Shown here: in pieces, positions 11,500 to 33,789 of the stretch
How positions within the stretch are numbered: position 1 is the stretch's first letter
Layout: the number at the start of each line of letters is the position of its first letter
NCBI GenBank assembly: GCA_963837175.1
Contig: CAWIMJ010000046.1
Coordinates: 64,001 to 128,000 of the forward strand
DNA from: an uncultured Nitrososphaeraceae archaeon
GTDB taxonomy: Archaea; Thermoproteota; Nitrososphaeria; Nitrososphaerales; Nitrososphaeraceae
DNA: 64,000 nt
Reading direction: 5' to 3'
Position numbers and translations under genes: made by a program
Notes under the pieces: generated by a model
The model's database searches: none
Seen by the model: the letters and a program-made list of their open reading frames with translations, nothing else
What the model was told of the DNA's origin: nothing

Positions 11500-12566
11500 C
11501 CTGATATCTCTCAGACACTATGATCTTTTTATTGATTATATCTTGTGTTAATTGATTTAACCTCGCTTTTACATCTTTAGGTACTTTATTCTCTAAGCCA
11601 TGGAATGGTGCTAGATAGACAATACCGTCTCCTACAGCCCCTTTGCCTATTTCTAGTCCAGGTTTAAATATTTCTCCTGTAAAATTGCCGGCTTGAACCA
11701 TTTTAACAGCTTGGTCATATGCCTTATCTACATCCAAGACAAACGAGGTCAAAACAGTGTCTGGCGCTAGTTTGTTCTGATCTGAGACCGCGCCAAATGC
11801 GTATATTCCCTTTTCTTTAGCAGCCTCAATAACACCTTGACCAGATGTATCAGCTACATGTAACAAAAAGTCAGCACTAGCATTTATTTGTAATATTGCT
11901 GCCTTCCTTTCCTTTAGATGGATTATCAAAATCATCTAAATATGTAACAAGCACTTTAACGTTGCGATTCACCAACTTTGCACCTTGCTTATAGCCTTCA
12001 AAAATGTTTATGAGGTTTGGATATGTGACGTCTCCACCAACATAACCAATCACATCTGTTTTTGACATCATCCCAGCAAGTGCTCCTAACAAAAAGGATC
12101 CTTCCTGCTCCAGTGGGAAAATGGAAGCAACATTGGTTGACTTAGCAAGACCAGTAAAAACTACAAATTTTGTATTTGGATAGTCTTTTCCTACCTTTAC
12201 AGCAGGGTCTCCCCATTCAAAACCATGAGCTATAATCAAGTCATAACCTTCATGGGCATAATCTCTTAATGTAGCCTCTATATTTGTAATTGCAACATTA
12301 TCTGTAAAGTCAACTTCGTGACCATATTTAGTTTTTATTGCTTGTGCTGCATTGTATGCAAATGCGCCCCATCCTGCATCACTAAATAAAGCATCAGTTA
12401 ATAATGCTATTTTTAGGTGCTTATTGTACACCACCATAATCTGATCTGATGATGCTTTTTCTGTAACAGCAGCAACAGTAAGTTGGAAAGGTTGACCAGG
12501 TATTACTACTGCTATTATTACTATACCTATTGCTATCATGGCTAAATGCTTTCCTTTTACACCCAT
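11471..12566 (-). CDS. BMP/PnrA family substrate-binding protein (+1 frameshift at ~11903)
   Basis: GYDLIIAHGFEW, GVIEAAKEKG, GAVSDQ, VLTSF motifs; removing one base gives continuous SKGKEAAILQINASADF. Confidence 0.85.
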
Positions 12567-13691
12567 AGCAGCAAATATTCAAAAATCGGTATAATATGTT
12601 TATCAGAATACATATAGGCTGATGCTGCTGCAATTTTACCTTGAATATAAAGGTCTGGTACTGTTGAGCATAATCTGCAAAGTCAGACTTAATAGAAGTC
12701 TCTATTCTTTCTTACCTTGTTAGTATTGACAGCTTTTTTATTACTATCTAATTATACTTAGTACTACCTTAAAGCTGCTACCAATTGTTACCAATTTTGT
12801 TGCCCTATTACCTCCTTTTTCCAGCTGTTACCAGTGCAGGTATTTTAAATTTTGAGTATCTAAGATTGTTATCTATGTACTAATATTGATGGTGAATTTC
12901 TTTGAAACTAGCTCTCGACATAATATACAATATCCGTTTTTTTCCACAAATTGTTTTGTACTTGTAAATTTCATTATAAAATAACGACACTGATATGATG
13001 CATAGATATTTTATTTTAAAGTTAATCATACTGAACTCTCCAAAGATGTTGTTGCATGAACCATATGTCTGCTCTCTGGGTACACTTCTTACATACCTGG
13101 ATATCAGAATATCATAATTTGAAAGGACATTGTTAGTAGCATGAATTCGATTTTTGTTAGATAATCGATTATTGTAACAGTGAGGTTCTTTTTGCTCAAC
13201 TTAAATGAGAAGATTTGTTTAAAAAATCGTTCTGCCTCACTAAACCATTTGGCCACAATACCGTTCACTCTAAGAAGAGTTCTGTCCAAATTCAAGAATT
13301 AATGATTTATACATTTGAACTTAGGATTGCCATCAGGAGATTTGGTTGTTTATGGGAAACTCGTAAGAGAACAATTCTATACAAGGCTTACTACACAGCA
13401 ATACATCTTATACTCCTTCAGTACATAGAAAATAATTAAGATTGATAGCCGATGTTTGAATCCCTGATTTTCTATATATTTCTACTCCAGACATAGAATC
13501 ATCTATTCATTATTACACAAAAGTGCTAAAAGGTGAATTACACTGGAAAATTCATGCTTATGGAGTTTGAGTAGCATGCATTAAATTGTCAGAAAAAGAT
13601 CCTTTAGTAAATCTATATCAGGATATTTATCTAGTCTCAATCTTAATCTAGCTAGCTGTCCTGATGGAGAGTGTTCAATTAAATTAGTATA

Positions 13692-14816
13692 TTACTTAAC
13701 AAATGGATCAAAAGATGACATAATCAAATTTGCAATTTCTGGTCTCATCAAGTGTTCTGCTGGAATCTCACCAGAGATAACCATTTTTCTCATCTTTGTA
13801 CCACTTAGTTCTTCTCTCAATTCCGGTGTATGCGGACAGTTTCTTTCATTTGCATAGCTCAAACATTTCTTGCAATAGTAAAACGTTGGAAAGAAAAGCG
13901 GTGCAATTCCGAGATCCTGATAATCTTCAAAGATCTCTTGGGCTGCAAAAGGGTGATAATAGTTTCCAACACCTGCATGATCTCTTCCAACTATAAAGTG
14001 TGAACATCCGAAATTCTTTCTCATAATTGCATGATGAATTGCCTCTTTCGGTCCAGCATATCTCATTTCTGTATGAAGAGTTACAAACATAGATCTATTC
14101 TTGGGATAATAATTTTCTATCAATTTCTCATATGCTCCGAGAATTACTTCATCCTTAAAATCGCCAGATTTTTTTTTGCCTATTAATGGATTTATAAATA
14201 ATCCATCATAAATATTCAAGGCTGCCTTCTGCAACATTTCGTGAGCAATATGTGGAATATTTCTTGTCTGAAATCCTACTACAGTTTTCCAACCTCTCTT
14301 CTGAATTTCGGACCTAGTTTCAAAGGGGCTCATTCTATATTTTCTCAAAGGTGATTTTTGTATTCTCTTAATAACATCAATCTTGCCTTCTATAAATAGA
14401 TCTTTCATTCTTATCATATTTGAAACTCCAGGATGTTGTAGGTCATCTGTCTGATAAATTGCTTTTGCTGCAGCAAGTTTATCAAATGAATAAACATTCT
14501 CAACATGAAGAATTCCAAAATTTTCATTACTACTCAAACAAACTTCCCTGGCATCTTTCATCTTTATTGCTGTTTGCTCGTCTACATCCAAGATTATAGG
14601 AATAGTCCATGCTAAACCATTCTTCAAATGACCACATTTTATAATGCTCTGGAAGTCATCCTCACCTACAAATCCCTCCAGGGGGCTGAAGACCCCATCA
14701 GCAATATTTTCAATGTCATTTTGAAGATTATAATTGACATTAATTGAAAACATTCCGTCAATATTTTTTTTAGTAGTAAATCTGTTTATCAATCTGCCTC
14801 CATGAGGAGGTGGCAT
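13692..14816 (-). CDS. sat: Sulfate adenylyltransferase
   Basis: PPHGG start, FQTRNIPHIAHE, MRYAGPKEA, HFIVGRDHAG. Confidence 0.96.
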   Translation of the reverse strand: MPPPHGGRLINRFTTKKNIDGMFSINVNYNLQNDIENIADGVFSPLEGFVGEDDFQSIIKCGHLKNGLAWTIPIILDVDEQTAIKMKDAREVCLSSNENFGILHVENVYSFDKLAAAKAIYQTDDLQHPGVSNMIRMKDLFIEGKIDVIKRIQKSPLRKYRMSPFETRSEIQKRGWKTVVGFQTRNIPHIAHEMLQKAALNIYDGLFINPLIGKKKSGDFKDEVILGAYEKLIENYYPKNRSMFVTLHTEMRYAGPKEAIHHAIMRKNFGCSHFIVGRDHAGVGNYYHPFAAQEIFEDYQDLGIAPLFFPTFYYCKKCLSYANERNCPHTPELREELSGTKMRKMVISGEIPAEHLMRPEIANLIMSSFDPFVK

Positions 14817-14859
14817 ACTAGTGCTACATGCATATCCCAATAATAATTCCCTACTTGTG

Positions 14860-15612
14860 TTATTTTTTAGTGGGATCCCAATGCAGACCGCATTCTTTTT
14901 GTGTCGCATTTTCCCACCACCATCTACCTGCTCGTGGATCTTCCCCAGCATGAATAGCTCTTGTACATGGTTCACAACCTATGCTTGGATAACCACTATC
15001 ATGTAACTTATTATATGGAACATTATTTTTATGAATATAATCCCAGATCATTCCATTAGTCCAGTCTGCTAACGGATTAATCTTAGCAATACTGCCATGT
15101 GAAGAATCAATTTCAAGTTTATTGATATTAGTCCTAGTTATTGCCTGCTCCCTTCTCAGGCCAGTAATCCACCCATCCAGATTACTTAACGCTCTATTAA
15201 GTGGATGTACTTTTCTAATTTCGCAGCAAAGCTTTCGATTTTCAACACTTTCATACATCAAATTCATACCTTTTATTTTGACCATTTCTTCGATTTCTCT
15301 TTGTTCAGGAAAATATACTTCAATTTGTATATCATATTTTTTTCGTATCGCATCCATTACATCATAGGTTTCCTGGTTGAGTCTACCAGTATCCAATGTG
15401 AAAATTCTGGTTTTTTCTTTGTTGATTTTTACCATCATATGTATAATAATTACATCTTCAGCACCAAAACTTGATGCCAAAGCTATCTTCGGTGCATAAG
15501 CATTAATAGCCCATTCCAGGACTTCCATTGCAGATTTGTCCTCCATTTCTTTTGCAATTTTTTTGATCTGCAATTCAGTTGGTTTTAATATATCAACATT
15601 TGTTTCAGACAT
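14860..15612 (-). CDS. cysH: APS/PAPS reductase (Fe-S type)
   Basis: LDTG, CC pair, WITGLRREQ, GYPSIGCEPCT, ECGLH. Confidence 0.95.
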   Translation of the reverse strand: MSETNVDILKPTELQIKKIAKEMEDKSAMEVLEWAINAYAPKIALASSFGAEDVIIIHMMVKINKEKTRIFTLDTGRLNQETYDVMDAIRKKYDIQIEVYFPEQREIEEMVKIKGMNLMYESVENRKLCCEIRKVHPLNRALSNLDGWITGLRREQAITRTNINKLEIDSSHGSIAKINPLADWTNGMIWDYIHKNNVPYNKLHDSGYPSIGCEPCTRAIHAGEDPRAGRWWWENATQKECGLHWDPTKK

Positions 15613-15704
15613 ATTTAATATTCAGAATAATAGAGTTATATTCATTGTCATTATATAGATATGATTTCCATATTTAGATAGTCACTGATTTTAATTGGAG
15701 ACGA

Positions 15705-16009
15705 GAGTCCAAAGTTTCAATAGATGATGGCATACTATTGGTATAATTCCCAAATCTACAACTTTTTGAGATTAAAGCATAATCATATCATCTCCTTCCT
15801 TCATTCCTCACATAAAGAAAAGGAAAGTATCTTAGAGAAAGAACAAGCCGATACTTTATATAGATAGAACTGAATGTTTACTGATAATGATTACTTTTCA
15901 TGTATAACAAAAATAAATGTAAATTAAAGCAGTTATTATCAACTATTTGGTAATCTATTTCATTGAATATAATAATAGATAAGAGTGATTTGTTAAGTTA
16001 ACACAGGCC
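15705..16009 (+). mobile_element. IS6-family transposase 3' remnant with right terminal repeat
   Basis: Fragments resembling VSTDGGTWY, LHSS..EKS.IER, DRTECF.DYF.C; ends in GTTAAGTTAACACAGGCC, matching the IS end at 24462. Confidence 0.7.
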
Positions 16010-16099
16010 TGAAATTTATTATATTATAGATAAAAGTTGTGTTTATTAAATAGTACTTTTCTATATATAATATTAATTAAACGAGGATTTGTGATTGTT

Positions 16100-16108
16100 A
16101 GGGGAGGT
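16100..16108 (+). promoter_or_regulatory. Shine-Dalgarno-like site before the SelD-like gene
   Basis: GGGGAGGT a few nt upstream of TTG 16114. Confidence 0.5.
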
Positions 16109-16113
16109 TATGA

Positions 16114-17523
16114 TTGTCCGGGGATTTTTGGGAACTTATAGAGGAATACAGACAGCTAGGTTTTGATCCCCTACGATGGATTCCAACTTGCTCAAATGAG
16201 ATAGACACTTATCTCTTCCAATCTTCATTGAAAAATATCAAGAGAAGCAACATAAAGATAAAACCCAATTGGTTTGATTCTTTCCATTATACAGAAGGCA
16301 AGGGTATTGAACTTACTAGAAGAGTATATAGTTTTGATAACCCAAAAATCGAAAAAGAAGTAGAAATCAAACGGGCACTTTCTATATTTCGCATTCATCT
16401 GAATACTGGTGAAAATTCAACATTATTGTCAAAAGCAATTCAGAGATTTATGAAAAATTTCTATTCGAAAGTATTAGTAAAGAAAGTAACTACTTCTTTA
16501 ACAGCATATCCTGACGCTCAATTTGCGCTTCTGGACTACATAGAATTACACAGAGGTGACAAGGTAGGATACACATCTGCTAATAATTCTGTTACAAATA
16601 TAACTGATCCAACTCATAGTCCAGATTCTGAGATACATAGTAACATCTCGTTGACAGCCGCAATGGAATATCTAAATCTTCTAGGATGTACTTCAGGCTT
16701 TAAAGTATTTCCTGTATATGATGCTCCAAATGAAAATATTTTGGATAAGATTAGAGAAAACCTTGATCGATTTACTTCTCGTTATAACTTAGCAATGGAA
16801 GACTATAGTTCGCTTAAAGTAGGCAAGTTATTCTTCGGTGCGACTGCAATTGCAAATACGCTTAAGGAATTACCTACACGATATAACCAATCGGAAGAAG
16901 GAATGCAAATCGTTCTTTCGAATAAATTGGGTTCAATGACAGCTGTAAGTCTTTACATGTTGACTAAAATGGATCATAACAACATAACTAAATTTGAGCA
17001 AAATGGTATTGGATTAGACGCACTTTCTGCTGCAAAAGATGAGGCAATGAAACGTCTAACTGAACCTCATTTCGCTCTTGGTAAAATAATTTCAACATAC
17101 TGTCCAGATTTTGAAACAGAGTTTGATAAACATGTCCACATAACTGCTGTTCATCCTGTTACAACAGATGGCATATTTGCGGTGGGAAAACTTGCAGAAT
17201 TGACAAATTCCCATATTGTAATTAACAAACTTCCAATGAAGTATGAAGAGGTTGCAAAGTTTGCAACAAGAGAATTTTTGATTGAGAATGCAACTGTATC
17301 TACAAACGGATGTCACCTGATCGTCGCAACAAAGGATGTAACAAATTACATCCTGGAAGAGTTACGGAAATATAATTTTGAACCAACAGTGATTGGATTT
17401 ATATCAAAGAAAGGAGAAGCGAGTGTGGCAATTGGAAATGAGATCAGCGAATATGTGGCTTCCAAAGCTAAACTTGCTAGATTAAATTGTCTAGCTCAAG
17501 CAGAAAGTCAACAGCATGAATAA
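16114..17523 (+). CDS. SelD-like (AIR synthase/PurM-fold) putative sulfur metabolism protein
   Basis: N-terminal YRQLGFDPLRWIPTC, ITDPT, LSNKLG, VHPVTTDGI, TNGCHLI pattern of the SelD-related archaeal family; recognised by eye only. Confidence 0.65.
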   Translation: MSGDFWELIEEYRQLGFDPLRWIPTCSNEIDTYLFQSSLKNIKRSNIKIKPNWFDSFHYTEGKGIELTRRVYSFDNPKIEKEVEIKRALSIFRIHLNTGENSTLLSKAIQRFMKNFYSKVLVKKVTTSLTAYPDAQFALLDYIELHRGDKVGYTSANNSVTNITDPTHSPDSEIHSNISLTAAMEYLNLLGCTSGFKVFPVYDAPNENILDKIRENLDRFTSRYNLAMEDYSSLKVGKLFFGATAIANTLKELPTRYNQSEEGMQIVLSNKLGSMTAVSLYMLTKMDHNNITKFEQNGIGLDALSAAKDEAMKRLTEPHFALGKIISTYCPDFETEFDKHVHITAVHPVTTDGIFAVGKLAELTNSHIVINKLPMKYEEVAKFATREFLIENATVSTNGCHLIVATKDVTNYILEELRKYNFEPTVIGFISKKGEASVAIGNEISEYVASKAKLARLNCLAQAESQQHE

Positions 17524-17879
17524 CAAAATCCTTCAACCATTCTGTGCTGTTATTTCTTCAATAGTGATGAGTTGATATCTTTCCAATAATAATTGTCACT
17601 TATTTTTCCTATTTTTTTATAATACTAACTTCAGTCGCTGTTTATTTTAGTCCATACTTTGAGATTGCATTTGGATGTAATATTTTGTCATACTTGAATG
17701 GCATCTCTTATAATAAATAATTTATTGTATATTATGATCACATATTGAAATTCAAATTATTCACAGGAATAAATGCAGTAAAATAAACCAATAGTCAAAT
17801 ACTCGTTTGTGAGAAATTTTTCATCTATCCTATAATATGATGATCCAAACTATAATACTCTAAATTACAATAATATAAT

Positions 17880-18200
17880 TTAAGAGGACATTTGAAAACT
17901 TGAAATTAGAACACAATTCTAATTTCAAGATAATACTACAAAGGATTTTGGTAACAGTCGAGGAGAATAATTCATCAGCATTCGTAGAAATATAAAATAA
18001 CCAGACAACTTAAGTATATAAGTTAAGTTTTATTGAAAGAATCAAAAGGTTCAATAGTAAAAGTCGGAGACAGAAAATAATATTTATCGAGGCTTTAACT
18101 TATCTTAGAATACGCAGCAAAATATCAAAAGAGAAACGATGGTTTTCATAAACGGATTATCAGTACGTTCCCAAAAAATTAACTTACGTTTTACTCTATC
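17880..18200 (+). mobile_element. Highly decayed DDE transposase fragment
   Basis: Fragments resembling ERFN..V.DR.K..RG, a C-terminal motif of thaumarchaeal IS6-like transposases; bounds approximate. Confidence 0.35.
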
Positions 18201-18292
18201 GAATATAAGCATGTAAATCCAATTTGCCTTGTATCACTACAAAGGTAGGCTTTTTATAATATATACATCATCTAAGAAGAATTACTAAGTCA

Positions 18293-19072
18293 TTGCCATC
18301 ATCATCACCGACATCGCAATTTTCCAAACGACAAGTATTACTAGCCATAAGACAGATATTTTTGATAGCCTATATGACTGGAATTTTGTGGCTTCGCAGA
18401 AATCCTATTTCTATGGTTTTTTCTGCAATGAGTCCGTTTTCGCTATTGTTTGTTTTGTTCATAGTGAGCAATGGCGAATACATCGAATTTGCAGTTGCAG
18501 GTAGTCTTGTGATGGCATTAGTCGGTTATGGACTCGCATTGGGACAGGATATTTCATACTACAAGACCGAGTATAAGATTCAGGATGTCTTCGTCGCTTC
18601 ACCGGTTTCTCCCCTTGTTTACATGACAGGCTTGGCATTATCTCAGCTTCTGTTTGGCTTGCCGGCATTGACTGTTCTTACAATCCTTGCAGCGTACTTT
18701 GGAACTTCAATTATATATGTCCCTCTATTGATATCAACAATATTATTAATCTGGGGAACCATGTCGGCAATTGGATTTTTCTTATCATCACATATGCTAC
18801 ATATGCGAAATGCAACACAAGTTATTTCGTTTGTTAATGTATTCCTTGCAGTATTACCTCCTGTCTTTTACTCAATAGAACGTTTACCTCTAGAATTACA
18901 ATATGTTGCTTATCTTGTACCGACCACCCATGCCTCGTTAATGTTGCAATATACTATGGGATTTCCTACACCAAAAGAATGGTCCGTTGCTCTTGGTTTT
19001 GGAGTACAGTTTGCATATCTAATAGGATTTATGGTGCTGGCAAAGACAAAAGCTCTTTGGCGAGAGGCATAA
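18293..19072 (+). CDS. ABC-2 type exporter permease
   Basis: Six TMs, ASPVSP, PPVFYSIERLP..LQYVAYLVPTTHA. Confidence 0.88.
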   Translation: MPSSSPTSQFSKRQVLLAIRQIFLIAYMTGILWLRRNPISMVFSAMSPFSLLFVLFIVSNGEYIEFAVAGSLVMALVGYGLALGQDISYYKTEYKIQDVFVASPVSPLVYMTGLALSQLLFGLPALTVLTILAAYFGTSIIYVPLLISTILLIWGTMSAIGFFLSSHMLHMRNATQVISFVNVFLAVLPPVFYSIERLPLELQYVAYLVPTTHASLMLQYTMGFPTPKEWSVALGFGVQFAYLIGFMVLAKTKALWREA

Positions 19073-19963
19073 TATAATAATTTACTAAGATATAGCGGAT
19101 AAGGTTTATTTAAAATGCTGAAGATCAGTTTAGATATTATAAGAAGTGTTAGTGTAGTTTCATAGTAGTCACTTACAAAATTAGTCAAAGAATGTATGTA
19201 TGTGCTTCAAAAAGTATCTTCTCAATTACGAACATCAAAGTCTAAAAAAGATGTTTAATATAGCATCTTTATTGTTGCTGCTGACTATTTTTATTTTCTC
19301 TAATAGCTACTAGTATGTGTCAAATTAAATGTTCAATTGATAGATTCAGATGAGTTGATTAAACTACAACACACATATTGTAAATGTAACTGAGATTAAA
19401 AAGATGAGAATTTATAAAGTAAAAAGACGTGAGAAGATAATCATTACAAAATATACTCTTTTGAAGGTATTCAATTGTACTTGAAAAGGAAAATATTAAT
19501 TACTCGCTAATAGAGAAACTGAGATGATATTATCGAGATTAAGTTTTATTAAATCTATTATAATAAATTACATCATTTAATTGGTAGTTTGTAGTTAGGA
19601 AGAATATTATATTCTGATGTAATACCATCTTTCGCAGGCTATCGATATATTGTTTATGTTACATAAATATATCTTATTAAGGATGGTTGGACGCTATCAA
19701 CCAGGCAAGAAATTAGATGCCAAACATGATGTAAAATATTTGTCATCTAGATATCGAATCATATAGTTAGTAACGTTTTTATAATAAATTGTTACAATTA
19801 AGTGTAGACTTAAATTACTAGAAATAATCTTATTAGAAAGAAACTCATTCTATCTTTATATGATAAAGAATTCTTTATACGGTCCAGAAGACTCTCCTTG
19901 ATGTAGAATATTCCAATACAAAAAGTAAGGCTTATACATAATTATAAAATAAAAATATCATAA

Positions 19964-20281
19964 ATGCAATATCATAAAGCCGCTTTTCTTGGGCAGGAGA
20001 GATCAAGAAAAGCTCAGATGAAGCTATTCGATTATACTGGATTTGCAATGCTGACTTATACTATAAAGCAGGATAAGAAAGGATTTGAACCTGTTGGTGA
20101 AGAAATGTTAGTTGGTAAAATTACTATGGCTGACGAGGCGATGCTATTTATCTGCGATAAAGATGGATATGCAAAGGCACAATCAAAACCTATAACAATA
20201 CAACAAGGCGAGGAAATTTACCAAAAAATGATAAAAGATGGATTTTTAGAATTTATAGGCTCTATCAAGACTGTTTCTTGA
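19964..20281 (+). CDS. Conserved hypothetical protein
   Basis: 105 aa ORF with TATA-like element upstream and protein-like composition. Confidence 0.7.
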   Translation: MQYHKAAFLGQERSRKAQMKLFDYTGFAMLTYTIKQDKKGFEPVGEEMLVGKITMADEAMLFICDKDGYAKAQSKPITIQQGEEIYQKMIKDGFLEFIGSIKTVS

Positions 20282-20981
20282 CCATTACGATCTCGGTACC
20301 GACATGATGTGTACCAATGATCGCGTTCTTAATATTAGTTATGTCTGACCGTAAGACTCTAGTAGGTATTTTTGAACGTTCTATAACTTTTAATGCCACA
20401 ATATCCATAAGATCATATGTCCCTGCCATTGAGCTTCCATTCTTAAGAATTTCCATACATTCACTTACTGTAATTTCATTTAATAATTTTGCATTCCTGC
20501 TGATATTCGGATCTAAGTCATAAATACCATCAACATCAGTAGCATTTAGGAATTTTGAGGCCCTTACTTTTTCCGCTATTAATGCTGAGGTAGCGTTAGT
20601 ACTTTGACCTGGATGTAAACCACCCACAATTACTATTTTACCACTTTCTGCTGCTATTGTCACTTCTTCGAGATTTTTTGGAACTTGGGAATACGCCTGT
20701 TCTCCAAGAGCTACTATCAATAATTTTGCATTCAACCTTGACACTTCGATTCCCATAATATCTAAACTCGCTTCATCGGAGCCAAGATAACGTGCAAGAT
20801 TGATATAATGACGTGCAATCTTGCCTCCGCCGGCAATAACTATTGGTTGTACATCAATGCTAATGTCAGTGAGCATTTCAGCATATCTTTTAATAGTACC
20901 TTCGTTTCTTTCTTCGCTAAATATGCTACCACTTAATTTGATGGCTACCCTTTTTCTGATTATTCTATTACTGTTGTTCAT
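20265..20981 (-). CDS. pyrH: Uridylate kinase
   Basis: IKLSGS, AGGGKIAR, GGLHPGQSTNA, ATDVDGIY. Confidence 0.95.
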   Translation of the reverse strand: MNNSNRIIRKRVAIKLSGSIFSEERNEGTIKRYAEMLTDISIDVQPIVIAGGGKIARHYINLARYLGSDEASLDIMGIEVSRLNAKLLIVALGEQAYSQVPKNLEEVTIAAESGKIVIVGGLHPGQSTNATSALIAEKVRASKFLNATDVDGIYDLDPNISRNAKLLNEITVSECMEILKNGSSMAGTYDLMDIVALKVIERSKIPTRVLRSDITNIKNAIIGTHHVGTEIVMVKKQS

Positions 20982-22231
20982 ATGCTTCTCTCCGATAATT
21001 CTTCACCAAGAACCTTTCTAGTAGAGCATTCTACTACATTTCTATTTTCAGCAGTAGTGTATACTCTTAACATATCAAGAAAACCAGTTATAGAATCAAT
21101 AAGTGGAATTTCAGAGATAGGGGTCTCGTAAGCCCGTTCTTTATCAACAAGAAATACTGATCTTATCTCTTTCTTTGTAGGAGTTAGCGGCATTGATGGC
21201 GCTCTTGAAGCATCAACAAAAACAGAACTCTCATCTACTTCTGCAACATCAGCTATCTGTTTGCCAAGATCATGTAGCGCTTGTCTATTCATTTTTCTAT
21301 ATAATTTATCGCGTTTATGTAAAAATTTTTCGTAAACACATTTTAATAGTTTTCTAGATCTATAATCTATTGCTAATTTGACTGCTATTTTATTGCCATT
21401 TTGAAATGAGCAAATGCGTTCAAGAGTTGCTTCATCTGTTAGATCAAGGTAATTTTTCAAAGAGGTATCCGTTAAACCCATCTCTTTGTCAGCTAGTATC
21501 ATAGAATGTAATAACATAACTTCTGCAGATCTTACTGTTTTATGAAAATAGACCGCCTTGAACATTTCATATCTAGAAATCAACATAGATTCAAATGAAT
21601 ATAGCGCGGATCTGTTAATAGCTAAATGTCCATTAGACACTATCTCAAAGGAACTTATCAGCCGGTGATAATCAATCTTACCATACTCTACTCCTGTAAA
21701 GAGTCCATCTCTAGACAAATAATCCATGCTATCCGCAGATAGTCCGCCAGCAATTATCTCATTGAAAAATTTTACATTAGATTCACCAAATGATAACTTG
21801 CATATACCTGATGAATTGTAACCGTATTTTCTTACAATGTCACTAACCTCACTATGAGATATTATCTTCCTTCCCATATCTTCATGGCTTCTCTTGCATC
21901 TTGCCTCCAATACCTCCTCAAATAGATGGGAAAACGGTCCATGACCTATGTCATGAAGCAATGCTGCCAATCGTAACTCCTGAACTAGGTCTTCATTTTC
22001 AAGATATCCTTTGGTAAGAAGAGTTTCTCCTGCATAGCCCGCTACATGCATAGTGCCAAGCGAATGCTCGAATCTAGAATGTTGTGCACTAGGATAAACT
22101 AAATGTGCTCCAGCAAGTTGTCTGATTCTTCTCAAACGCTGAAAAACTGGCGTATCAATAAGTTCTCTCTCCACATCAGAAAATCTGATATAATGATGGA
22201 CTGGATCGGTAATTTCACCGGTAAACTTCAT
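20978..22231 (-). CDS. HD-domain dNTP triphosphohydrolase-like protein
   Basis: DPVH, FQRLRRIRQL, HSRFEHSLG, LLHDIGHGPFSH, VYFHK. Confidence 0.93.
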   Translation of the reverse strand: MKFTGEITDPVHHYIRFSDVERELIDTPVFQRLRRIRQLAGAHLVYPSAQHSRFEHSLGTMHVAGYAGETLLTKGYLENEDLVQELRLAALLHDIGHGPFSHLFEEVLEARCKRSHEDMGRKIISHSEVSDIVRKYGYNSSGICKLSFGESNVKFFNEIIAGGLSADSMDYLSRDGLFTGVEYGKIDYHRLISSFEIVSNGHLAINRSALYSFESMLISRYEMFKAVYFHKTVRSAEVMLLHSMILADKEMGLTDTSLKNYLDLTDEATLERICSFQNGNKIAVKLAIDYRSRKLLKCVYEKFLHKRDKLYRKMNRQALHDLGKQIADVAEVDESSVFVDASRAPSMPLTPTKKEIRSVFLVDKERAYETPISEIPLIDSITGFLDMLRVYTTAENRNVVECSTRKVLGEELSERSI

Positions 22232-22265
22232 AATTATGGATGGTCATTGTATGTGATAGCAGAAA

Positions 22266-22874
22266 TTAAACTTTAAGATTTTTTCTAACAATTGTCATTA
22301 TATCTTCATGAACTTGATCTTTACTTTTTTCACCATTAATTATCTTCCATTTATATTGTCTTGCAAGTTTGCGATAGTTTTTATGAACATCTGTCAGCAA
22401 TTTCTGATCTTTTTCAAATACATCACGGTTCTCTACTGCTCGTTGATAAGAAGTCTTAGGACTAACTTCAATGACTATAACTATATCTCCTTTTGGTAGA
22501 CCCTTGTCTAAGTTGATGAGCCAGTTAATATTAAGACCATTTGCAATACCATAAACAAGATTTGATTGATAATATCTATTCATTATTAAGATGGTGCCAT
22601 TGTCTATCATACTTTCTATTTCCTTCTTCTTCTCCCACCTATTAGCAGAAAGAAGAAGATGTTTTAGTTCATCAGGATAATCGCGTTTGCCATCTAAAAA
22701 AGCTTGGATCTCTGCTCCAATAGGTGTGGTATAATCAGGAAAATCCAACATTACACAAATTCTTCCAGAAAGTTTGAGAGTATCTAAAAGCAGTCTGGAC
22801 TGTGTTCCTTTGCCAGCTTTGTCTGTTCCCTCTATTACTATAATCTTGCCTTTTTCCAATGCATTGAAATGCAA
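22266..22874 (-). CDS. tmk: Thymidylate kinase
   Basis: IEGTDKAGKGTQ P-loop, FPDY, NRYYQSNLVYG. Confidence 0.94.
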   Translation of the reverse strand: MHFNALEKGKIIVIEGTDKAGKGTQSRLLLDTLKLSGRICVMLDFPDYTTPIGAEIQAFLDGKRDYPDELKHLLLSANRWEKKKEIESMIDNGTILIMNRYYQSNLVYGIANGLNINWLINLDKGLPKGDIVIVIEVSPKTSYQRAVENRDVFEKDQKLLTDVHKNYRKLARQYKWKIINGEKSKDQVHEDIMTIVRKNLKV

Positions 22875-28083: not shown

Positions 28084-28500
28084 ATGAGCATAAATTATGA
28101 GTTTCTGTATGCATTCAGTAAAGAACTTTTGAAGTTGGACAAAACTATCACATGGATTGGCATAGCAAACAATTTTGGTGTCCTTCTTAATGTAGAACAT
28201 AGGGAAGAATTATTACCACTTTTGACTGAAGAAGAAAATGAAGAATATGTCTCAAGTACCATAACGAGACATAAAACTAGGATAAAGTTTGAATCAAGAA
28301 TAGGGAAGCTTATTTATGCATTAGGTAAATATCAAAAACTTAACAGAGTTACAATCCCAATAAATGAAAATTATTACCTGCTTATAGCACTGGATACAGA
28401 AGTAAAAGATTTTGATAACACAATAATGGAAAAAATAATTCCACTTATAAAAAAAGAAAAACACAATTTTGGTAATTCTAATGCAATTGAACATAAGTAG
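28084..28500 (+). CDS. Roadblock/profilin-like small protein of the type expanded in Nitrososphaerales
   Basis: LKLDKTITWIGIANNFG, PLLTEEE, IGKLIY...YQKLNRVTIP pattern. Confidence 0.7.
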   Translation: MSINYEFLYAFSKELLKLDKTITWIGIANNFGVLLNVEHREELLPLLTEEENEEYVSSTITRHKTRIKFESRIGKLIYALGKYQKLNRVTIPINENYYLLIALDTEVKDFDNTIMEKIIPLIKKEKHNFGNSNAIEHK

Positions 28501-29425
28501 CAGAATAGATTGGCTCTGTCTGGCAATAATCTCTAGTTCTAAAAGGTTAGTAATTGAAGATTATACTATATACATTTTTTGCTGATATGTATTTGAGGAT
28601 TGTTATTACAAGGATCGTTTTTCTTCATTGATATAGGTTTGTCATCATTCGCCATCTTGTTGAGTTTGTATGAACATATTTTCTAAAAGTCTTTTTATAT
28701 TTGTATGCATAGATTTTATTCTTGTATTTACTGTATAACCCACAAAATTGGTAAGGATATTCTACAAAAGAAAAATATGCCAGTTTAACTTTTCTTTTTT
28801 TTACTTTGCTTCTCTTTCTGTTGCCCTCATGTTTGCCAGCTTTTGTTGCTATTGCCTTGAGTCGTCTTCTAGATACATCTATCTACTTTTATAATTGACT
28901 CATTTGTGCTTGAATGTTCCAGATTTACCGAAGCTGTTTATCTACATGTCTAATTGTTTCTGTAAAACTGAAATTATGTTGATCGCCTTTCCAATTTGAT
29001 CCGTCTGTTTTTTTATATGCGTACTTACATCAACTAATGTAATTTCCTTCTTAATAGTTCTTCTCTCTTCATGGTCATCCCATACCTTCTTTCTTTTTTT
29101 GTGTCATACAGCCTTTTATATTCATTTTGTCCATGCTGATGCTCTTTTTGTCGTGTATAAGTATGAACTTCCATAGATTTTTTAATTGCGTGCTCTTCTA
29201 TTTCTCGGTATCTATCCTTAATCTGGGACTTTAAATTCGACGTCTTCCGACACACCTTGAATAAAGAAGTAGAATTAAAATTAGTTATTATTAATTATCT
29301 AGAAATGTTATAAGCTATAAGATTACAGATAGTTAATAACATTATTACCTTATACTAATATTGGACTACAGAAGCTCTACAATATTGTTTAATATACAAT
29401 ATCAAAAAATAGTATAGGAATTTTT

Positions 29426-30772
29426 TCACATTATGCCCCTTATGAAGGTTCTATAGATGTATAGAGCATCTTCTTCGTCTTTTGCACCTACTATTGTTGC
29501 AGCACCGCTTGTCAGAAAACTTACAGACAATTTACTAGAATTGGTACTTTCCGCGGTTATTCCTAGGCTACCCCTAGTTTTAACCTGGTATCCGAGCAAT
29601 TCTGCATTTTCTATTATTTTCATCAGGTCGATTGGCAAAGATAGTTCGGATGGAGTAACAGTGTATGTTCTCTTGCCCATATCTCTTCCGCATAACTCTT
29701 CTATTAGCAATTGCTGTTGTGCAACTTTTACCGTATCCATCCTTTTTTTCGATCCACAGGAAGGACACTCTTCATGCCTAAACATTTGAACTTTCTCAAA
29801 TGAAAGTTCATTCAAGTCCATATAAAGAAGATTATTTACAAGCGCAGGTTTTTGGCCTGTAATTATCTTGACTGCCTCTGAGACTTGTATGCCGCCGACC
29901 AAATATAATATAGATGGATGTATACCCTCCGTACTACACGTAGGCATATCATCCTCCAATAACGCAGGAAACATACATCGCAGGCACGCAGATTTATTTG
30001 GCAATATAGTACACACGGAACCTAATGTGCCTAGGGCACCTGCATAGATAAATGGTATATTATGTTTTATACATGCGTCGTTTAGAGCATATCTGGCATC
30101 AATGCTGTCAAGTGCATCTATAACAACATCAAATCCTTCTACAAGACTCTCTGCTGTATATTTGGTAACGGAGATTGGAACTGCTTCAATTTCAACTGCA
30201 GTATTCATTTTTTTTAATCGTTGTGCAGCTGCTTCAACCTTGACTTTTCCAATATCGTCTTCTGCATAAAGGTGTTGCCTGTGTAAATTTGAAATTTCAA
30301 TAACATCTCTATCCACTATTCTTAGTTTACCAACTCCCATGGCGGTTAGTTGAGTGACAACAGGATTTCCAATCCCACCAACACCAACAACGCACATTTT
30401 TGCATTACGTAGTTTTTCCATTCCAATAAACCCAATCTCTTCAAGCATTATCTGTCTTGAGTACCGTTGCATATCATTACTTGTCAGCTCTGCTCCACCA
30501 GCCACTGCTGGTAGTATGTATATAGAATCACCATCAATAAGCGACATCGTCATACCATTGCTATTAAAGCGCATATTTTTGCCATTAATGTAAATGTTGA
30601 TCAGAGCACGTGGCTTGCCATTAAGATCAAACACCTTAAGTTTAAAGTCCTCCCCCATCTGATTGGAAACTTTGTTAAATGCATCTTGCAAATCACTGGA
30701 TTCTAACAAAATTTTTTTCTCTCCTAAACCTTTATTTAATACTGAGGGTATCACGAATTCAACTTTGGCCAT
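29426..30772 (-). CDS. Ubiquitin-like (MoaD/ThiS/SAMP) domain fused to ThiF/MoeB E1-like adenylyltransferase
   Basis: Beta-grasp domain ending ILPAVAGG, then RYSRQ, GVGGIG, SNLHRQ, CxxC...CxxC. Confidence 0.92.
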   Translation of the reverse strand: MAKVEFVIPSVLNKGLGEKKILLESSDLQDAFNKVSNQMGEDFKLKVFDLNGKPRALINIYINGKNMRFNSNGMTMSLIDGDSIYILPAVAGGAELTSNDMQRYSRQIMLEEIGFIGMEKLRNAKMCVVGVGGIGNPVVTQLTAMGVGKLRIVDRDVIEISNLHRQHLYAEDDIGKVKVEAAAQRLKKMNTAVEIEAVPISVTKYTAESLVEGFDVVIDALDSIDARYALNDACIKHNIPFIYAGALGTLGSVCTILPNKSACLRCMFPALLEDDMPTCSTEGIHPSILYLVGGIQVSEAVKIITGQKPALVNNLLYMDLNELSFEKVQMFRHEECPSCGSKKRMDTVKVAQQQLLIEELCGRDMGKRTYTVTPSELSLPIDLMKIIENAELLGYQVKTRGSLGITAESTNSSKLSVSFLTSGAATIVGAKDEEDALYIYRTFIRGIM

Positions 30773-30799
30773 TTCTGTGTTATCACCATTTTTACATGA

Positions 30800-32023
30800 T
30801 CATCTAATCATTGCTGAAACTATTTGTACGTCTGGTTTTACAGTGTTAAATTTTGGAAGTACATCTATAATTGACTCGGTAGCCTTAAGTCCGTTACCTG
30901 TGATATAGCAAACTACTTTTTCATCTTTGTCTATTTTACATTCTTCAATCAACTTTCGAAGTACCGCTACACATACTCCACCTGCAGGTTCTGTGAATAT
31001 ACCTTCTGTTTTAGCAAGCATTAGTATTCCATCAACAATTTCTTCATCTGTAGCTTCTTCTGCGAGTCCATTATATTGGTTCAATCTTTTCAGAACATAT
31101 GGTCCATCACCAGGGTCACCTATTGCAAGACTTTTTGCAATTGTCTTAGGCCTTTCTACGGGAACAACTTCAATTTTTTTCTTAAAGGCTTCGACCACTG
31201 GAGCACATCCATGAGGTTGTGCAGCCGTTATCTTTAGGTTTGCTAGACTATCAACTAAACCAAGATCAAGCAGCTCTTCAAATCCTTTGCAAATTGCATT
31301 TAACATTGCTCCACTTCCAACCGGAATTATTAGATTGTCAGGAACCTCCCAATTTAGCTGCTCGGCTACCTCATAGGCAAGTGTCTTCGAGCCTTCAACA
31401 TAATATGGTCGCATATTAATATTGACTATACCAATGCCTTTAGAGTCTCCTATTACAGATGCAACCCTATTTGCATCGTCATAAGTTCCGTCTACTGCTA
31501 CGAATTCAGCTCCGTATGATAGTGCTTGCGCTATCTTTACCTTTTCAATGTCAGATGGTGAAAAAATATAACAAGGCAATTCTGCTTTTGCAGCATGGGC
31601 GGCAGTTGCAGAGGCTAGATTACCTGTAGACGCACAACCCACGGCTTTTAATTTGGTTTCTTTGGCTCTCGAAACAGCTACGCCAGCAGGCCTATCCTTA
31701 AAAGAAAATGTTGGATTTACAGAATCGTTTTTAATAAATAAGTTTTTCATCCCGCCTATTTGTTTACCAAGTCCGCTTGCTTTTTGTAACGGAGTGAAAC
31801 CAGCACTTAGATCTACAATATTGCTTTTATTAGCAATAGGTAACAGTTCAAAATATCGCCAATATGTTTTCACATCCCTTGAGGAAAAAGTTGTCCTCTT
31901 TAGATTGAAAGAAAAGTTGTAAATGACATCAAGTGGACCAAAACATTCTTCACATATGTATCTAAATTGTGGAGCATATTCTTTTCCACACTCTCTGCAT
32001 TTTAGTGATTGTATACTACCCAT
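30800..32023 (-). CDS. thrC: Threonine synthase family PLP enzyme
   Basis: N-terminal zinc ribbon, NPTFSFKDR, ASTGN, PVGSG, TGNGLK. Confidence 0.9.
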   Translation of the reverse strand: MGSIQSLKCRECGKEYAPQFRYICEECFGPLDVIYNFSFNLKRTTFSSRDVKTYWRYFELLPIANKSNIVDLSAGFTPLQKASGLGKQIGGMKNLFIKNDSVNPTFSFKDRPAGVAVSRAKETKLKAVGCASTGNLASATAAHAAKAELPCYIFSPSDIEKVKIAQALSYGAEFVAVDGTYDDANRVASVIGDSKGIGIVNINMRPYYVEGSKTLAYEVAEQLNWEVPDNLIIPVGSGAMLNAICKGFEELLDLGLVDSLANLKITAAQPHGCAPVVEAFKKKIEVVPVERPKTIAKSLAIGDPGDGPYVLKRLNQYNGLAEEATDEEIVDGILMLAKTEGIFTEPAGGVCVAVLRKLIEECKIDKDEKVVCYITGNGLKATESIIDVLPKFNTVKPDVQIVSAMIR

Positions 32024-32194
32024 ACTTTTGACTATCCTCTATCTTGGATTGTAATAGATAAGTTTCTCTAAGAGCAATTTTAGTATTACTATATTTTTTT
32101 TACCAAAATAATTATAATCATTAAAATTAATTTTTATGATAATTACTGTTAACATCTTTTAATATCAAAAATATAAAAAATTCATGAATAATTT

Positions 32195-32521
32195 TCAATT
32201 TTTTTGTTTTTCTAGAAGATTATGAAAACATGAACGATTGCCCGTATGACATGCAGGAGTTTGTGATTCTACCAAGTAAAGCAAAGCATCTGAGTCGCAG
32301 TCTACTAATATTTTTTTTACATATTGAATATGCCCGGACTCTTCACCTTTCATCCACAGTTTGTTATGTGATGTACTCCAGAACCAAGCATTTCCTGTTT
32401 TAATAGTATTATTAAGCGCTTCCTCATTAGCATATGCAAGCATAAGTATATCTTTTGTTTTTTGATCTTGAACTACTACAGGAAGCAATCCATTTCTTTT
32501 TGGGAAATCAATATCTGACAC
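32195..32521 (-). CDS. hisI: Phosphoribosyl-AMP cyclohydrolase
   Basis: LWMKGEESG, DCDSD, ACHTGNRSCF. Confidence 0.95.
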   Translation of the reverse strand: MSDIDFPKRNGLLPVVVQDQKTKDILMLAYANEEALNNTIKTGNAWFWSTSHNKLWMKGEESGHIQYVKKILVDCDSDALLYLVESQTPACHTGNRSCFHNLLEKQKN

Positions 32522-33342
32522 GATTTGATATTCATATTCCGATCTCTGTGTCTTCTGTTATAATTAAGGTAACATAAATCAATTGTTCATACAGTACGAT
32601 AAGTGGCTGTTATTTTTGCTTGTCGAGGAATAGATTTAACAGACTAAGAAATTTATTGTTCCATCCGCACACATCCCTTATAAGTAATTTCCTCCCTCTA
32701 TAAATGGAATATAGCGTAGAGCAAAGCCTTTTAAGAATTCCTTTTTTCTTTGTTATATACTACAACGTCACTATGCCTGTTCTCGAATCAACTTTGTGTT
32801 GGACGCCCAAGCTCTCAGCAGACCCATGGTAACCAATCTCGCCTTAACTATTTTAGTATCTCTATTAAATCGACAAACAGCTATATTTAAAAATTCTATT
32901 AAATTCGAATTAAATATATTTCCACATTTAAGTTCACATAATTTCTAATAGGATCATTTAATAATTAATCAATAGCTTATCATCTATGACAGTTAAAATA
33001 CTAGCACCATTGAATCTTCTAATGAAATTCAGATCGTTTGGGAGAAACTATCAAAGAATATTAGATAATAGACCCATATATAACAAATGCATTGACATCG
33101 ATACATGTTTGAAGGTATGATAAGAGAAGCTAAAGATTATAGTATCATAATAATTGAAGGTTTAGTAAATGCTATTGATTGTATCGGCTTCAATGTATCT
33201 CAGATTTAAGTTCAGCTAAGATAATAATATAATATGATATGTATTTCAATTTTGAAGTCAAAAGCATGCTGAGTTTGCAGTATTAGTTAAAAACTTGTCT
33301 GAGACTGGAAGCTCCCTGTTCTATTAGTCAATTCGTAGATAT

Positions 33343-33789
33343 TCAGGACAGATCCACTGCAAAACGTAATGATCGGTAGCGTTTATAGTCGTCAAGTAAG
33401 ATCTTTGCTAAATGCCTGGTAATATCAGATACACTTAGTAATCCTGTAATTCTATTATCTTCTTCTAAAACTGCGAGTCGCTTGATTTTGTTCCTTGTCA
33501 TTATCCTACAAGCCAACTCTACAGAATCGTATGACATTATTGTTATGAGTGGAGATGACATAATTTCTTCTACTTCGATTCTGCCTGCTGGAACATTTTT
33601 CAAGCATACCCGCTTTACCATATCGCGTTCAGTAATAATACCAAGAGGTTGACTTTTTTTGTCTACTACAATTATGGAACCTACCTTCTTCTTGGCCATC
33701 AGATTTGCAATATCTTGCGCCGTTTTACCTAATCCCGGGATTATTGTAACGACTTCTTTTTCCGACATTATTTCACTGACGGAGCTCAC
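33343..33789 (-). CDS. CBS-domain pair protein
   Basis: VGSIIVVD..PLGIITERD, IMSSPLIT, IKRLAV..GLLSVSD. Confidence 0.9.
   Translation of the reverse strand: MSSVSEIMSEKEVVTIIPGLGKTAQDIANLMAKKKVGSIIVVDKKSQPLGIITERDMVKRVCLKNVPAGRIEVEEIMSSPLITIMSYDSVELACRIMTRNKIKRLAVLEEDNRITGLLSVSDITRHLAKILLDDYKRYRSLRFAVDLS

Follow-up and report, generated by a model that had tools for sequence, protein, structure and literature searches.

A probable MetM/MetO-type homocysteine synthesis operon with a carrier-E1 fusion in an ammonia-oxidising archaeon

Gene order and domain architecture at the locus

The window analysed here is a stretch of 64,000 nucleotides from an uncultured Nitrososphaeraceae archaeon, a soil ammonia-oxidiser (assembly GCA_963837175.1, contig CAWIMJ010000046.1, positions 64,001 to 128,000), to which all coordinates refer unless another contig is named. 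The genome under study, G000, comprises 3.81 Mb in 58 contigs and is 91.5% complete. The reverse strand of the window carries two adjacent genes: a ThrC-family pyridoxal 5'-phosphate (PLP) enzyme (407 aa, 30800..32023), assigned as MetM-like from its profile matches, clade position and residues, and a fusion gene (448 aa, 29426..30772) that joins a ubiquitin-like (Ubl) domain, an E1 adenylation domain and a domain resembling the TATA-binding protein (TBP). The ThrC-family gene, hereafter thrC, lies 5' of the fusion gene on the same strand. The spacer between them (30773..30799) measures 27 bp, within the limit of 30 bp given in the first-pass annotation of this DNA, and has a GGTGA Shine-Dalgarno-like motif ahead of the fusion ATG.

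The ThrC-like protein, a fold-type II PLP enzyme, matches the Pfam domain PALP at residues 72-376 (238 bits) and scores 300.4 bits on the threonine synthase equivalog TIGR00260, for which the cut-off is 167.1. It has an N-terminal zinc ribbon of the CxxC...CxxC type and the PLP lysine K109 within an SFKDR motif.

The N-terminal part of the fusion protein (residues 1-93, 30494..30772) is a MetO-like carrier domain of the ThiS/MoaD beta-grasp type, with a Pfam ThiS match at residues 19-93 (24.2 bits, cut-off 22.5). It ends in YILPAVAGG (residues 85-93); the two glycine codons (residues 92-93, 30494..30499), a putative site of cleavage and adenylation, are followed without a gap by AELTSNDMQRYSRQ, the usual N-terminus of MoeB/ThiF E1 enzymes. 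The ThiF/MoeB-type adenylation domain (approximately residues 95-345, 29738..30490) has a four-cysteine motif, matches Pfam ThiF at residues 104-337 (252.7 bits) and retrieves ThiF and MoeB as sequence matches in PDB. No rhodanese domain of the MoeZ type was matched on this E1 in Pfam or NCBIfam. The C-terminal domain (residues 350-448, 29429..29725) contains EELCGRD. The first-pass annotation had described the same anatomy, a beta-grasp domain ending in PAVAGG that runs in frame into ThiF/MoeB and then into an extra domain.

An AlphaFold2 model of the fusion, based on a 23-row alignment (mean predicted local distance difference test score, pLDDT, 83.6), consists of a beta-grasp domain, a linker, the E1 and a compact C-terminal domain. 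The linker, residues 91-109, has pLDDT below 50, and the E1 matches Escherichia coli ThiF and MoeB (1zfn, 1jw9) with Foldseek TMt 0.92-0.93. The C-terminal 99 residues were folded separately (pLDDT 87.2). Their top VIA-align match is the TBP 1mp9_B (rmsd 3.3, 90 aligned) with Z 8.4, a middling value about 1 above unrelated rows, on which the TBP assignment rests; the best Foldseek rows are likewise TBPs, at E 3.5e-3 or weaker and none at E<=1e-3. The domain is modelled with a TBP-like fold, and C12, P25 and G74 (domain numbering) are invariant in 14 rows. The single polypeptide therefore has the Ubl, E1 core and TBP-like domain of the 'Ubl-E1-TBP' architecture that Makarova and Koonin described in Thaumarchaeota in 2010 (PMC2948915). 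Stand-alone E1-TBP proteins of 333-346 aa without a Ubl were found in Gemmatimonadaceae, Pyrinomonadaceae and Thermoplasmata (L103-L107). Their genes adjoin those for cysteine desulfurase, Thi4-like and PP-loop (ThiI-like) proteins, so the E1-TBP architecture points to a wider sulfur-transfer role.

The in-frame Ubl-E1 junction was found in 75 of 80 related loci, taken from species-representative genomes (Nitrososphaerales-type assemblies, 69-94% identity); three loci are cut by contig ends. Because the junction recurs in this way, it is real and not an assembly slip. Both the ThiS and the ThiF domain are present in 117 of the 120 best database homologues of the fusion. The thrC gene lies directly upstream on the same strand in 72 of the 75 loci, the other three having no upstream DNA. 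In the complete genome G042 the gene order is the his operon, hisI, a 190-aa gene, thrC, the fusion gene and a 1699-aa gene.

Soil metatranscriptome contigs of at least 99% identity cover both genes, and one RNA-library contig (X1 record 3, 30356-30600) spans the glycine codons with zero differences. The 27-bp gap is bridged by RNA-library contigs from three runs of two studies, a fourth run having only 29 nt on one side. RNA-library depth is zero at the flank 29300-29396 in all four runs and at 32016-32200 in three of the four. The co-transcription proposed in the first-pass annotation is favoured by these bridging contigs, but weakly, since contigs cannot prove a single transcript and DNA may occur in RNA libraries.

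Carrier variants, ThrC phylogeny and riboswitch-controlled relatives

We surveyed 151 Nitrososphaeria genomes, comprising 109 ammonia-oxidisers (families f1-f3 and G000) and 42 others. In three of the relatives (G129, G130 and G065) the carrier is a discrete protein of 92-93 aa that ends exactly in AVAGG-stop and follows thrC with an overlap or at 1 nt. In these genomes and in G106 the Ubl (92-97 aa) adjoins thrC and the E1 is encoded elsewhere, as an E1-TBP protein in the first three; the free Ubl of G106 ends in GGSGLS. Genomes of family f3 either have a Ubl with 8-15 extra residues and a separate E1 gene, or join the two by a Ser/Asn linker of approximately 40 residues. Most fusions have only one or two residues between GG and the E1 N-terminus. 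G041, which is not an ammonia-oxidiser, has the order thrC, Ubl (SVAGG-stop), E1.

P9, N59, Y61, P88, A91, G92 and G93 are invariant in all 18 aligned carriers, bacterial MetO-like ORFs included. The beta-grasp domain, the AGG end and the place beside thrC that are expected of a MetO carrier are all seen; GG is internal in the window protein and free in G129, G130, G065 and G041. Since the free Ubl stays with thrC where the E1 lies elsewhere, the carrier is, by gene linkage, tied to the ThrC-like gene and not to the E1. As judged from the relatives, the free GG end is the ancestral working form of the carrier, and the fused form would need cutting to expose its GG.

A phylogeny, one of the checks proposed in the first-pass annotation, was built from 80 proteins (409 columns, IQ-TREE quick search). 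The window enzyme falls apart from canonical ThrC, in a clade of 38 rows with a Shimodaira-Hasegawa-like approximate likelihood ratio test (SH-aLRT) value of 100. The clade also includes proteins from 12 other ammonia-oxidisers, five other Nitrososphaeria and 20 Acidobacteriota, and 14 of the 20 acidobacterial genes have a SAM-I riboswitch (SAM, S-adenosylmethionine) and/or a MetO-like ORF. The second ThrC-family protein of G000, P0121 (446 aa, contig C47), represents a type set apart by a long stem; it belongs to a clade of 26 rows (SH-aLRT 99) that also holds the canonical ThrC of families f5-f7 and f9-f12. Forcing all archaeal ThrC rows together cost 343 lnL units (p-AU 2.75e-5 in the approximately unbiased, AU, test), the constrained group having been named after the tree was inspected.

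In 11 genomes a gene of the canonical clade adjoins thrB. The P0121 type has this neighbour in six f8 genomes; a window-type thrC beside thrB was not found in the genomes compared. Twelve alignment columns separate the two clades, with N203/R205/Y208 in the window enzyme and S/N/R in 25 of 25 canonical rows. The S/N/R columns presumably form the substrate-phosphate-binding loop of ThrC. K109 in SFKDR and STGN at 132-135 are invariant in both clades. The window enzyme thus lies outside both the clade and the residue pattern of the thrB-linked threonine synthases, and the divergent P0121 is, on its placement, likely the real threonine synthase. Window-type ThrC was found in 101 of the 109 ammonia-oxidiser genomes and P0121-type ThrC (63-78% identity) in 108; G115 (f1, 98% complete) is the sole genome with no match of the latter type, giving only a cross-match to its window-type gene. 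At one acidobacterial locus (L141, G182:C76:24495-28628) two ThrC-family genes adjoin each other. The first is MetM-like, with 44% identity to the window enzyme; the other (449 aa) is very divergent and has a long branch.

SAM riboswitches regulate methionine and SAM genes, and two classes of them accompany the bacterial relatives of the window enzyme. Among 101 Acidobacteriota genomes searched, 20 have a best match 43-50% identical to it, the rest reaching at most 41%. Of these 20 loci, 8 have a SAM-I riboswitch (RF00162) ahead of the gene on its own strand, compared with none of 14 lower-identity ThrC loci. A downstream carrier ending in PA[IV]AGG is present in 8 of the 20 (seven ORFs of 91-113 aa and one tblastn match only), and a riboswitch and/or carrier in 14 of the 20 versus none of 10 lower-identity loci. 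The bacterial carriers, here and in Gemmatimonadota, often have an E1 behind them. The fused Ubl domain matches the bacterial carrier ORFs directly (tblastn E 1e-6 to 3e-9). In Gemmatimonadota (81 genomes, best 20 loci, 41-50% identity to the window enzyme), a SAM-II riboswitch (RF00521) was found in 16 of 20 loci and a carrier ORF ending in [AS][IV]AGG in 15, or 17 with two more tblastn matches; an E1 lies beside the ThrC-like gene or the carrier in 10 of 20. Two riboswitch loci, L128 (G203, SAM-I) and L199 (G308, SAM-II), come from unpublished genomes, and the counts without them are 7/19 and 15/19. The bacterial homologues are co-located with asd and aspartate kinase. Judging by these elements, the bacterial relatives of the window enzyme are methionine-regulated.

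One operon type has apparently recruited two riboswitch classes, SAM-II in Gemmatimonadota (L195-L214) and SAM-I in Acidobacteriota (L125-L144). At the archaeal locus, an Rfam scan of 28500-33500 gave nothing meaningful (two rows, E 0.7-0.9). In three gemmatimonadal loci (L210, L211 and L212) the tblastn alignment stays in the same frame from the carrier through a stop into the E1. Because a single in-frame stop separates the two there, loss of this stop suggests itself as a simple route to the fusion.

Genome inventory and possible routes to homocysteine

Five PALP enzymes are encoded in G000: IlvA, TrpB, a CysK/CysM-like protein (TIGR01136, 275 bits), the window enzyme and P0121. The paralogue counts that the first-pass annotation proposed as a check are two ThrC-family genes and two JAB genes. 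For the Cys/Met-metabolism PLP family PF01053 the best match in G000 is partial (41 bits); an HcyBio domain was not found in this genome, and neither was cysE (best 24 bits, cut-off 210). At E<=1e-30, neither G000 nor any of the 108 other ammonia-oxidiser genomes gave a PF01053 match. The family is present in 31 of the 42 remaining Nitrososphaeria, among them G141, a complete f4 genome that lacks window-type ThrC; one or a few evolutionary events may be all that lies behind this complementarity. As no MetY/MetB/MetC-family enzyme was found in the 109 genomes, the homocysteine route of ammonia-oxidisers has been unclear. A MetH-type domain (PF02574) is present in G000. The presence of MetH was dropped as a discriminator, PF02574 occurring in all 95 f2 genomes, including seven that seemingly lack ThrC and the E1.

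The fusion is the sole ThiF-family E1 found in G000, and the genome has two free Ubls. The first is MoaD (TIGR01682, 73.1 bits, cut-off 66.15), encoded next to MoaE on contig C12. On moaD_arch the fused Ubl scores 31.5, below the cut-off of 49.5, and we do not take it for the MoaD that pairs with MoaE. The second free Ubl, which has VHGGI at its end, is encoded 2 kb from a CDC48-JAB pair, with an S17e-like gene on one side and a Cgi121-like gene on the other. As the only E1 in the genome, the fusion E1 must presumably also activate MoaD, and it probably activates the S17e/Cgi121-linked Ubl, so it is not dedicated to one pathway. The region around the latter (C50:236530-243262) contains a CDC48-like ATPase, JAB, TatD, an S17e-like gene, the Ubl with one residue past GG, a Cgi121-like gene and Sua5. 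The S17e/Cgi121/Ubl neighbourhood was described by Makarova and Koonin, who reported a Cgi121-Ubl fusion in Thaumarchaea (PMC2948915), whereas the two are separate genes here.

The two Prok-JAB genes of G000 are both on contig C50, one of them beside CDC48, and neither is linked to the operon. Both paralogues occur in 109 of 109 ammonia-oxidiser genomes searched, whatever the state of the fusion. The distribution of JAB was accordingly dropped as a marker of fused versus unfused carriers; it neither helps nor hurts the cleavage idea. The first-pass annotation held that the fusion needs JAMM-protease cleavage. Free GG-ended carriers in relatives and two genomic JAB genes fit this, but no JAB gene adjoins the operon.

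A JAB gene does lie directly upstream of Ubl-E1-rhodanese fusions of 470 and 481 aa in two other loci (L189, G033:C19:122500-126300; L190, G003:C9:40200-42900). As in the window, a Ubl is fused to its own E1 with a short linker after GG, and the setting is one of sulfur amino-acid metabolism. These clusters differ in the adjacent JAB, in the rhodanese domain, in identity to the window E1 (approximately 36%) and, in G033, in having a PF01053 enzyme and not a ThrC-like one. The G033 genes stand directly behind this MetY-like PF01053 enzyme and represent another kind of carrier-dependent cluster for sulfur amino acids within Nitrososphaeria. We take both clusters to resemble the HcyS/HcyD/HcyF/MetY system of Wolinella.

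Seven f2 genomes (Nitrosopumilaceae) appeared to have lost window-type ThrC and the E1 jointly while keeping the other ThrC. This was rejected, the assembly being broken at the locus in all five genomes checked, a set that leaves aside G132, G144 and G108. The contig ends 434-1246 nt past hisF or within hisF in G016, G048, G103 and G120, and G095 has an N-containing junction inside hisI; in G128 the fusion stands at a contig start. The breaks in these five independent assemblies (G016:C52, G120:C3, G103:C36, G048:C11, G095:C1; L193, L194) fall within approximately 1.3 kb downstream of hisF. They coincide with the position of the operon and the 1699-aa gene in G042, and something nearby is hard to assemble.

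Other features of the window include sat (13692-14975) and cysH (14860-15612), approximately 14 kb from the operon with unrelated genes between. The called sat ORF overlaps the 3' end of cysH by 116 nt (14860-14975), and its true start is probably downstream of the first GTG. The ORFs of 110 aa or more at 9502-22874 included no SelD-like one, and the gap 12500-13750 gave none either. Of the sat/cysH/SelD-like locus to which the first-pass annotation linked the operon, sat and cysH are present, but the link is at the level of the pathway only. On the reverse strand at 11471-12566, a Bmp/PnrA-like substrate-binding gene is split into overlapping ORFs of 154 and 229 aa that cover profile positions 172-299 and 3-174.

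Proposed pathway, alternatives and known systems

We propose that the operon is an archaeal module of the MetM/MetO type in which O-phosphohomoserine and a carrier thiocarboxylate would give homocysteine, and consider this reading of the comparative evidence likely. The 448-aa protein would be made as a pro-protein. A protease, probably one of the two JAMM/JAB proteins of the genome, would cut it after Gly93 into an E1-TBP enzyme and a carrier of 93 residues with GG at its end. The E1 would then adenylate the C-terminal glycine of the carrier, and a sulfur donor other than an E1 rhodanese would convert it to the thiocarboxylate. The ThrC-like enzyme would combine the thiocarboxylate with O-phosphohomoserine made by ThrB, and MetH would convert the resulting homocysteine to methionine. 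Threonine synthesis would fall to P0121, the divergent ThrC paralogue encoded on contig C47.

The closest known counterpart is the experimentally supported pathway of Streptomyces albulus (Hasebe et al. 2024, as presented in PMC13759103). There, MetO is the sulfur carrier, MoeZ the carrier-sulfur ligase, Mec a JAMM hydrolase and MetM a MetO-thiocarboxylate-dependent homocysteine synthase, which according to GapMind is often mis-annotated as threonine synthase (PMC13759103). Both systems have a ThrC-homologous PLP enzyme, annotated as threonine synthase, beside a GG-ended ThiS/MoaD-type carrier, with a ThiF/MoeB-type E1, a genomic JAMM protease and O-phosphohomoserine as the putative activated homoserine. 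In contrast to S. albulus, the carrier here is the N-terminus of the E1, a TBP-like domain takes the place of rhodanese, the E1 is the only one of its genome, no SAM riboswitch was found, and the host is an archaeon. An internal GG that needs proteolytic exposure before adenylation has a parallel in the MoaD-MoaE fusion of Deinococcus radiodurans, cleaved by DR0402 (Yang et al. 2018, cited in PMC11237513); the fusion partner is MoaE there and the E1 here, where the operon has no dedicated JAMM gene.

The first-pass annotation had suggested that the ThrC homologue uses the carrier thiocarboxylate to make homocysteine or cysteine, instead of or in addition to threonine. Homocysteine is supported by the comparative evidence and by the match with the published MetM/MetO pair, and 'instead of' fits better than 'in addition to', because the second ThrC groups with the canonical, thrB-linked synthases. 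As a whole, that earlier interpretation is partly supported; it took no account of the fusion architecture and the pathway already being in print (PMC2948915, PMC11237513, PMC13759103).

Several points weigh against the proposed pathway. What was observed is the domain make-up, the position in the tree, the linkage of the genes and the enzymes present; from these the substrates, the thiocarboxylate chemistry and the cleavage are inferred. The operon has neither an adjacent JAB gene nor an E1 with the rhodanese domain of MoeZ. The TIGR00260 score of the window enzyme (300 bits) exceeds that of P0121 (177 bits), to which we assign threonine synthesis. The only thrB of G000 (C43:47831-48799) is split over three frames, with one shift within an A-rich run. 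Since thrB is an intact single frame in 108 of 108 other ammonia-oxidiser genomes, the split is probably due to assembly indels or a strain defect, and the split Bmp/PnrA-like gene likewise hints at indel errors in the assembly. The apparent co-loss of ThrC and E1 gives no support and no loss is claimed, as the assemblies break at the locus. Clustering of the bacterial loci with the window enzyme is expected, because these anchors were picked by similarity, and the independent information in them lies only in the riboswitches and carriers. The likeness to S. albulus MetM (A0A059WBP2) and MetO (A0A059W7F4) is by description and not by sequence alignment. Finally, a ThrC of Microcystis that is 51.6% identical to MetM, and whose gene adjoins a MetO-like gene, is reported to have threonine synthase and deaminase activity (PMC12172450).

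Among the alternatives, it seems quite unlikely that a MetM-like homocysteine synthase uses free sulfide while the Ubl-E1 protein serves tRNA thiolation, sampylation or enzyme regulation. Such a division would suit the sulfate assimilation genes sat and cysH in the window, the need of the E1 to serve other Ubls too, and the action of archaeal Ubls in both sulfur transfer and conjugation (PMC2948915). The tight coupling of thrC and Ubl, kept in archaea and two bacterial phyla and reaching overlap or 1-nt spacing in G129 and G130, argues against it, as does the 'MetO-thiocarboxylate-dependent' label that GapMind gives to MetM (PMC13759103).

We give equally little credence to a housekeeping explanation, in which the window enzyme is threonine synthase, its neighbour is a MoaD-MoeB fusion for the molybdenum cofactor (Moco), and their adjacency is inherited synteny. 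The TIGR00260 score above the cut-off agrees with this, as does the presence of a single E1 in a genome that has MoaD and MoaE, and the hisI-thrC-fusion synteny among ammonia-oxidisers could be plain inheritance. A 2024 survey found the 'MoaD-MoeB fusion' in 61 of 98 Thaumarchaeota and filed it under Moco biosynthesis (PMC11237513). However, a separate MoaD that passes its equivalog cut-off adjoins MoaE, and the fused Ubl stays below the moaD_arch cut-off. The Ubl remains with thrC where the E1 lies elsewhere, homologous thrC-Ubl pairs stand under SAM riboswitches in two bacterial phyla, and it is the second ThrC that groups with thrB-linked canonical enzymes.

A system of the CysO/CysM kind, in which the ThrC-like enzyme would make cysteine from O-phosphoserine and the carrier thiocarboxylate, is very unlikely. 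Carrier-dependent cysteine synthesis by CysO/CysM/Mec/MoeZ is established in Mycobacterium tuberculosis; it likewise passes a protein thiocarboxylate to a fold-type II PLP enzyme and includes a JAMM protease. No cysE was found in G000, and sulfur entry into cysteine is therefore non-canonical. The M. tuberculosis system differs from the window operon in its CysM-type enzyme, in converting O-phosphoserine to cysteine and in a carrier encoded by a separate gene; operons of this type are class 4d of Iyer et al. 2006 (PMC1779556). Against a cysteine role stand the separate CysK/CysM-family gene of G000, the bacterial homologues under SAM riboswitches beside asd and aspartate kinase, and the failure to find another homocysteine route in this genome.

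Least credible is a fusion that is never cut, its N-terminal Ubl being a docking or regulatory domain and not a carrier: Iyer et al. ascribed a non-ThiS role to Ubls fused to some ThiF proteins that co-occur with a separate ThiS (PMC1779556), no JAB stands beside the operon and most fusions leave one or two residues between GG and E1, but close relatives have the same domain as a free protein with GG as its exact end, all 18 aligned carriers share AGG, two JAB paralogues occur in every ammonia-oxidiser genome searched, Ubl-E1-rhodanese fusions stand directly behind JAB in G033 and G003, and the MoaD-MoaE fusion sets a precedent for JAMM cleavage (cited in PMC11237513).

An extension of the proposed MetM/MetO-type pathway, which we regard as unlikely, makes the fused carrier-E1 a single sulfur hub of ammonia-oxidising archaea, whose carrier thiocarboxylate feeds both the MetM-like enzyme (homocysteine) and the CysK/CysM-like enzyme (cysteine), with the TBP-like domain replacing rhodanese. 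Since no cysE was found, the CysK/CysM-like enzyme may use O-phosphoserine. If so, carrier and activator would be made one to one and parted by cleavage, the sulfur of both amino acids would come from a protein thiocarboxylate and not from free sulfide, and the TBP-like domain would be a sulfur-receiving or carrier-docking module.

The MetM/MetO chemistry (2024) and the Ubl-E1-TBP architecture (2010, 2024) are already known. The terms 'threonine synthase' and 'ThrC' occur zero times in PMC2948915, and the passages on the fusion there and in PMC11237513 make no link to threonine synthase or methionine. A full-text literature search, with subscription journals and the text of Hasebe et al. outside its coverage, returned no paper that links the archaeal operon to methionine, and GapMind 2026 (PMC13759103) is silent, in text and supplements, on how Nitrosopumilus makes homocysteine. 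New here are the anchor in two phyla and two riboswitch classes, the thrB linkage of the other ThrC clade, the variants with a free carrier, the failure to find PF01053 enzymes in any of the ammonia-oxidisers surveyed, and the tracing of apparent losses to assembly breaks.

Ammonia-oxidising archaea are among the most abundant microbes of soil and ocean, and they grow without added amino acids. The proposed assignment would provide them with a route to homocysteine and would extend the Streptomyces pathway to archaea. It would correct two widespread annotations, 'threonine synthase' and 'molybdopterin-synthase adenylyltransferase', and under it the divergent P0121 would likely be the enzyme that makes threonine. 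The fusion itself would be a natural case of a ubiquitin-like protein translated joined to its own E1, and may be useful for the study of carrier maturation.

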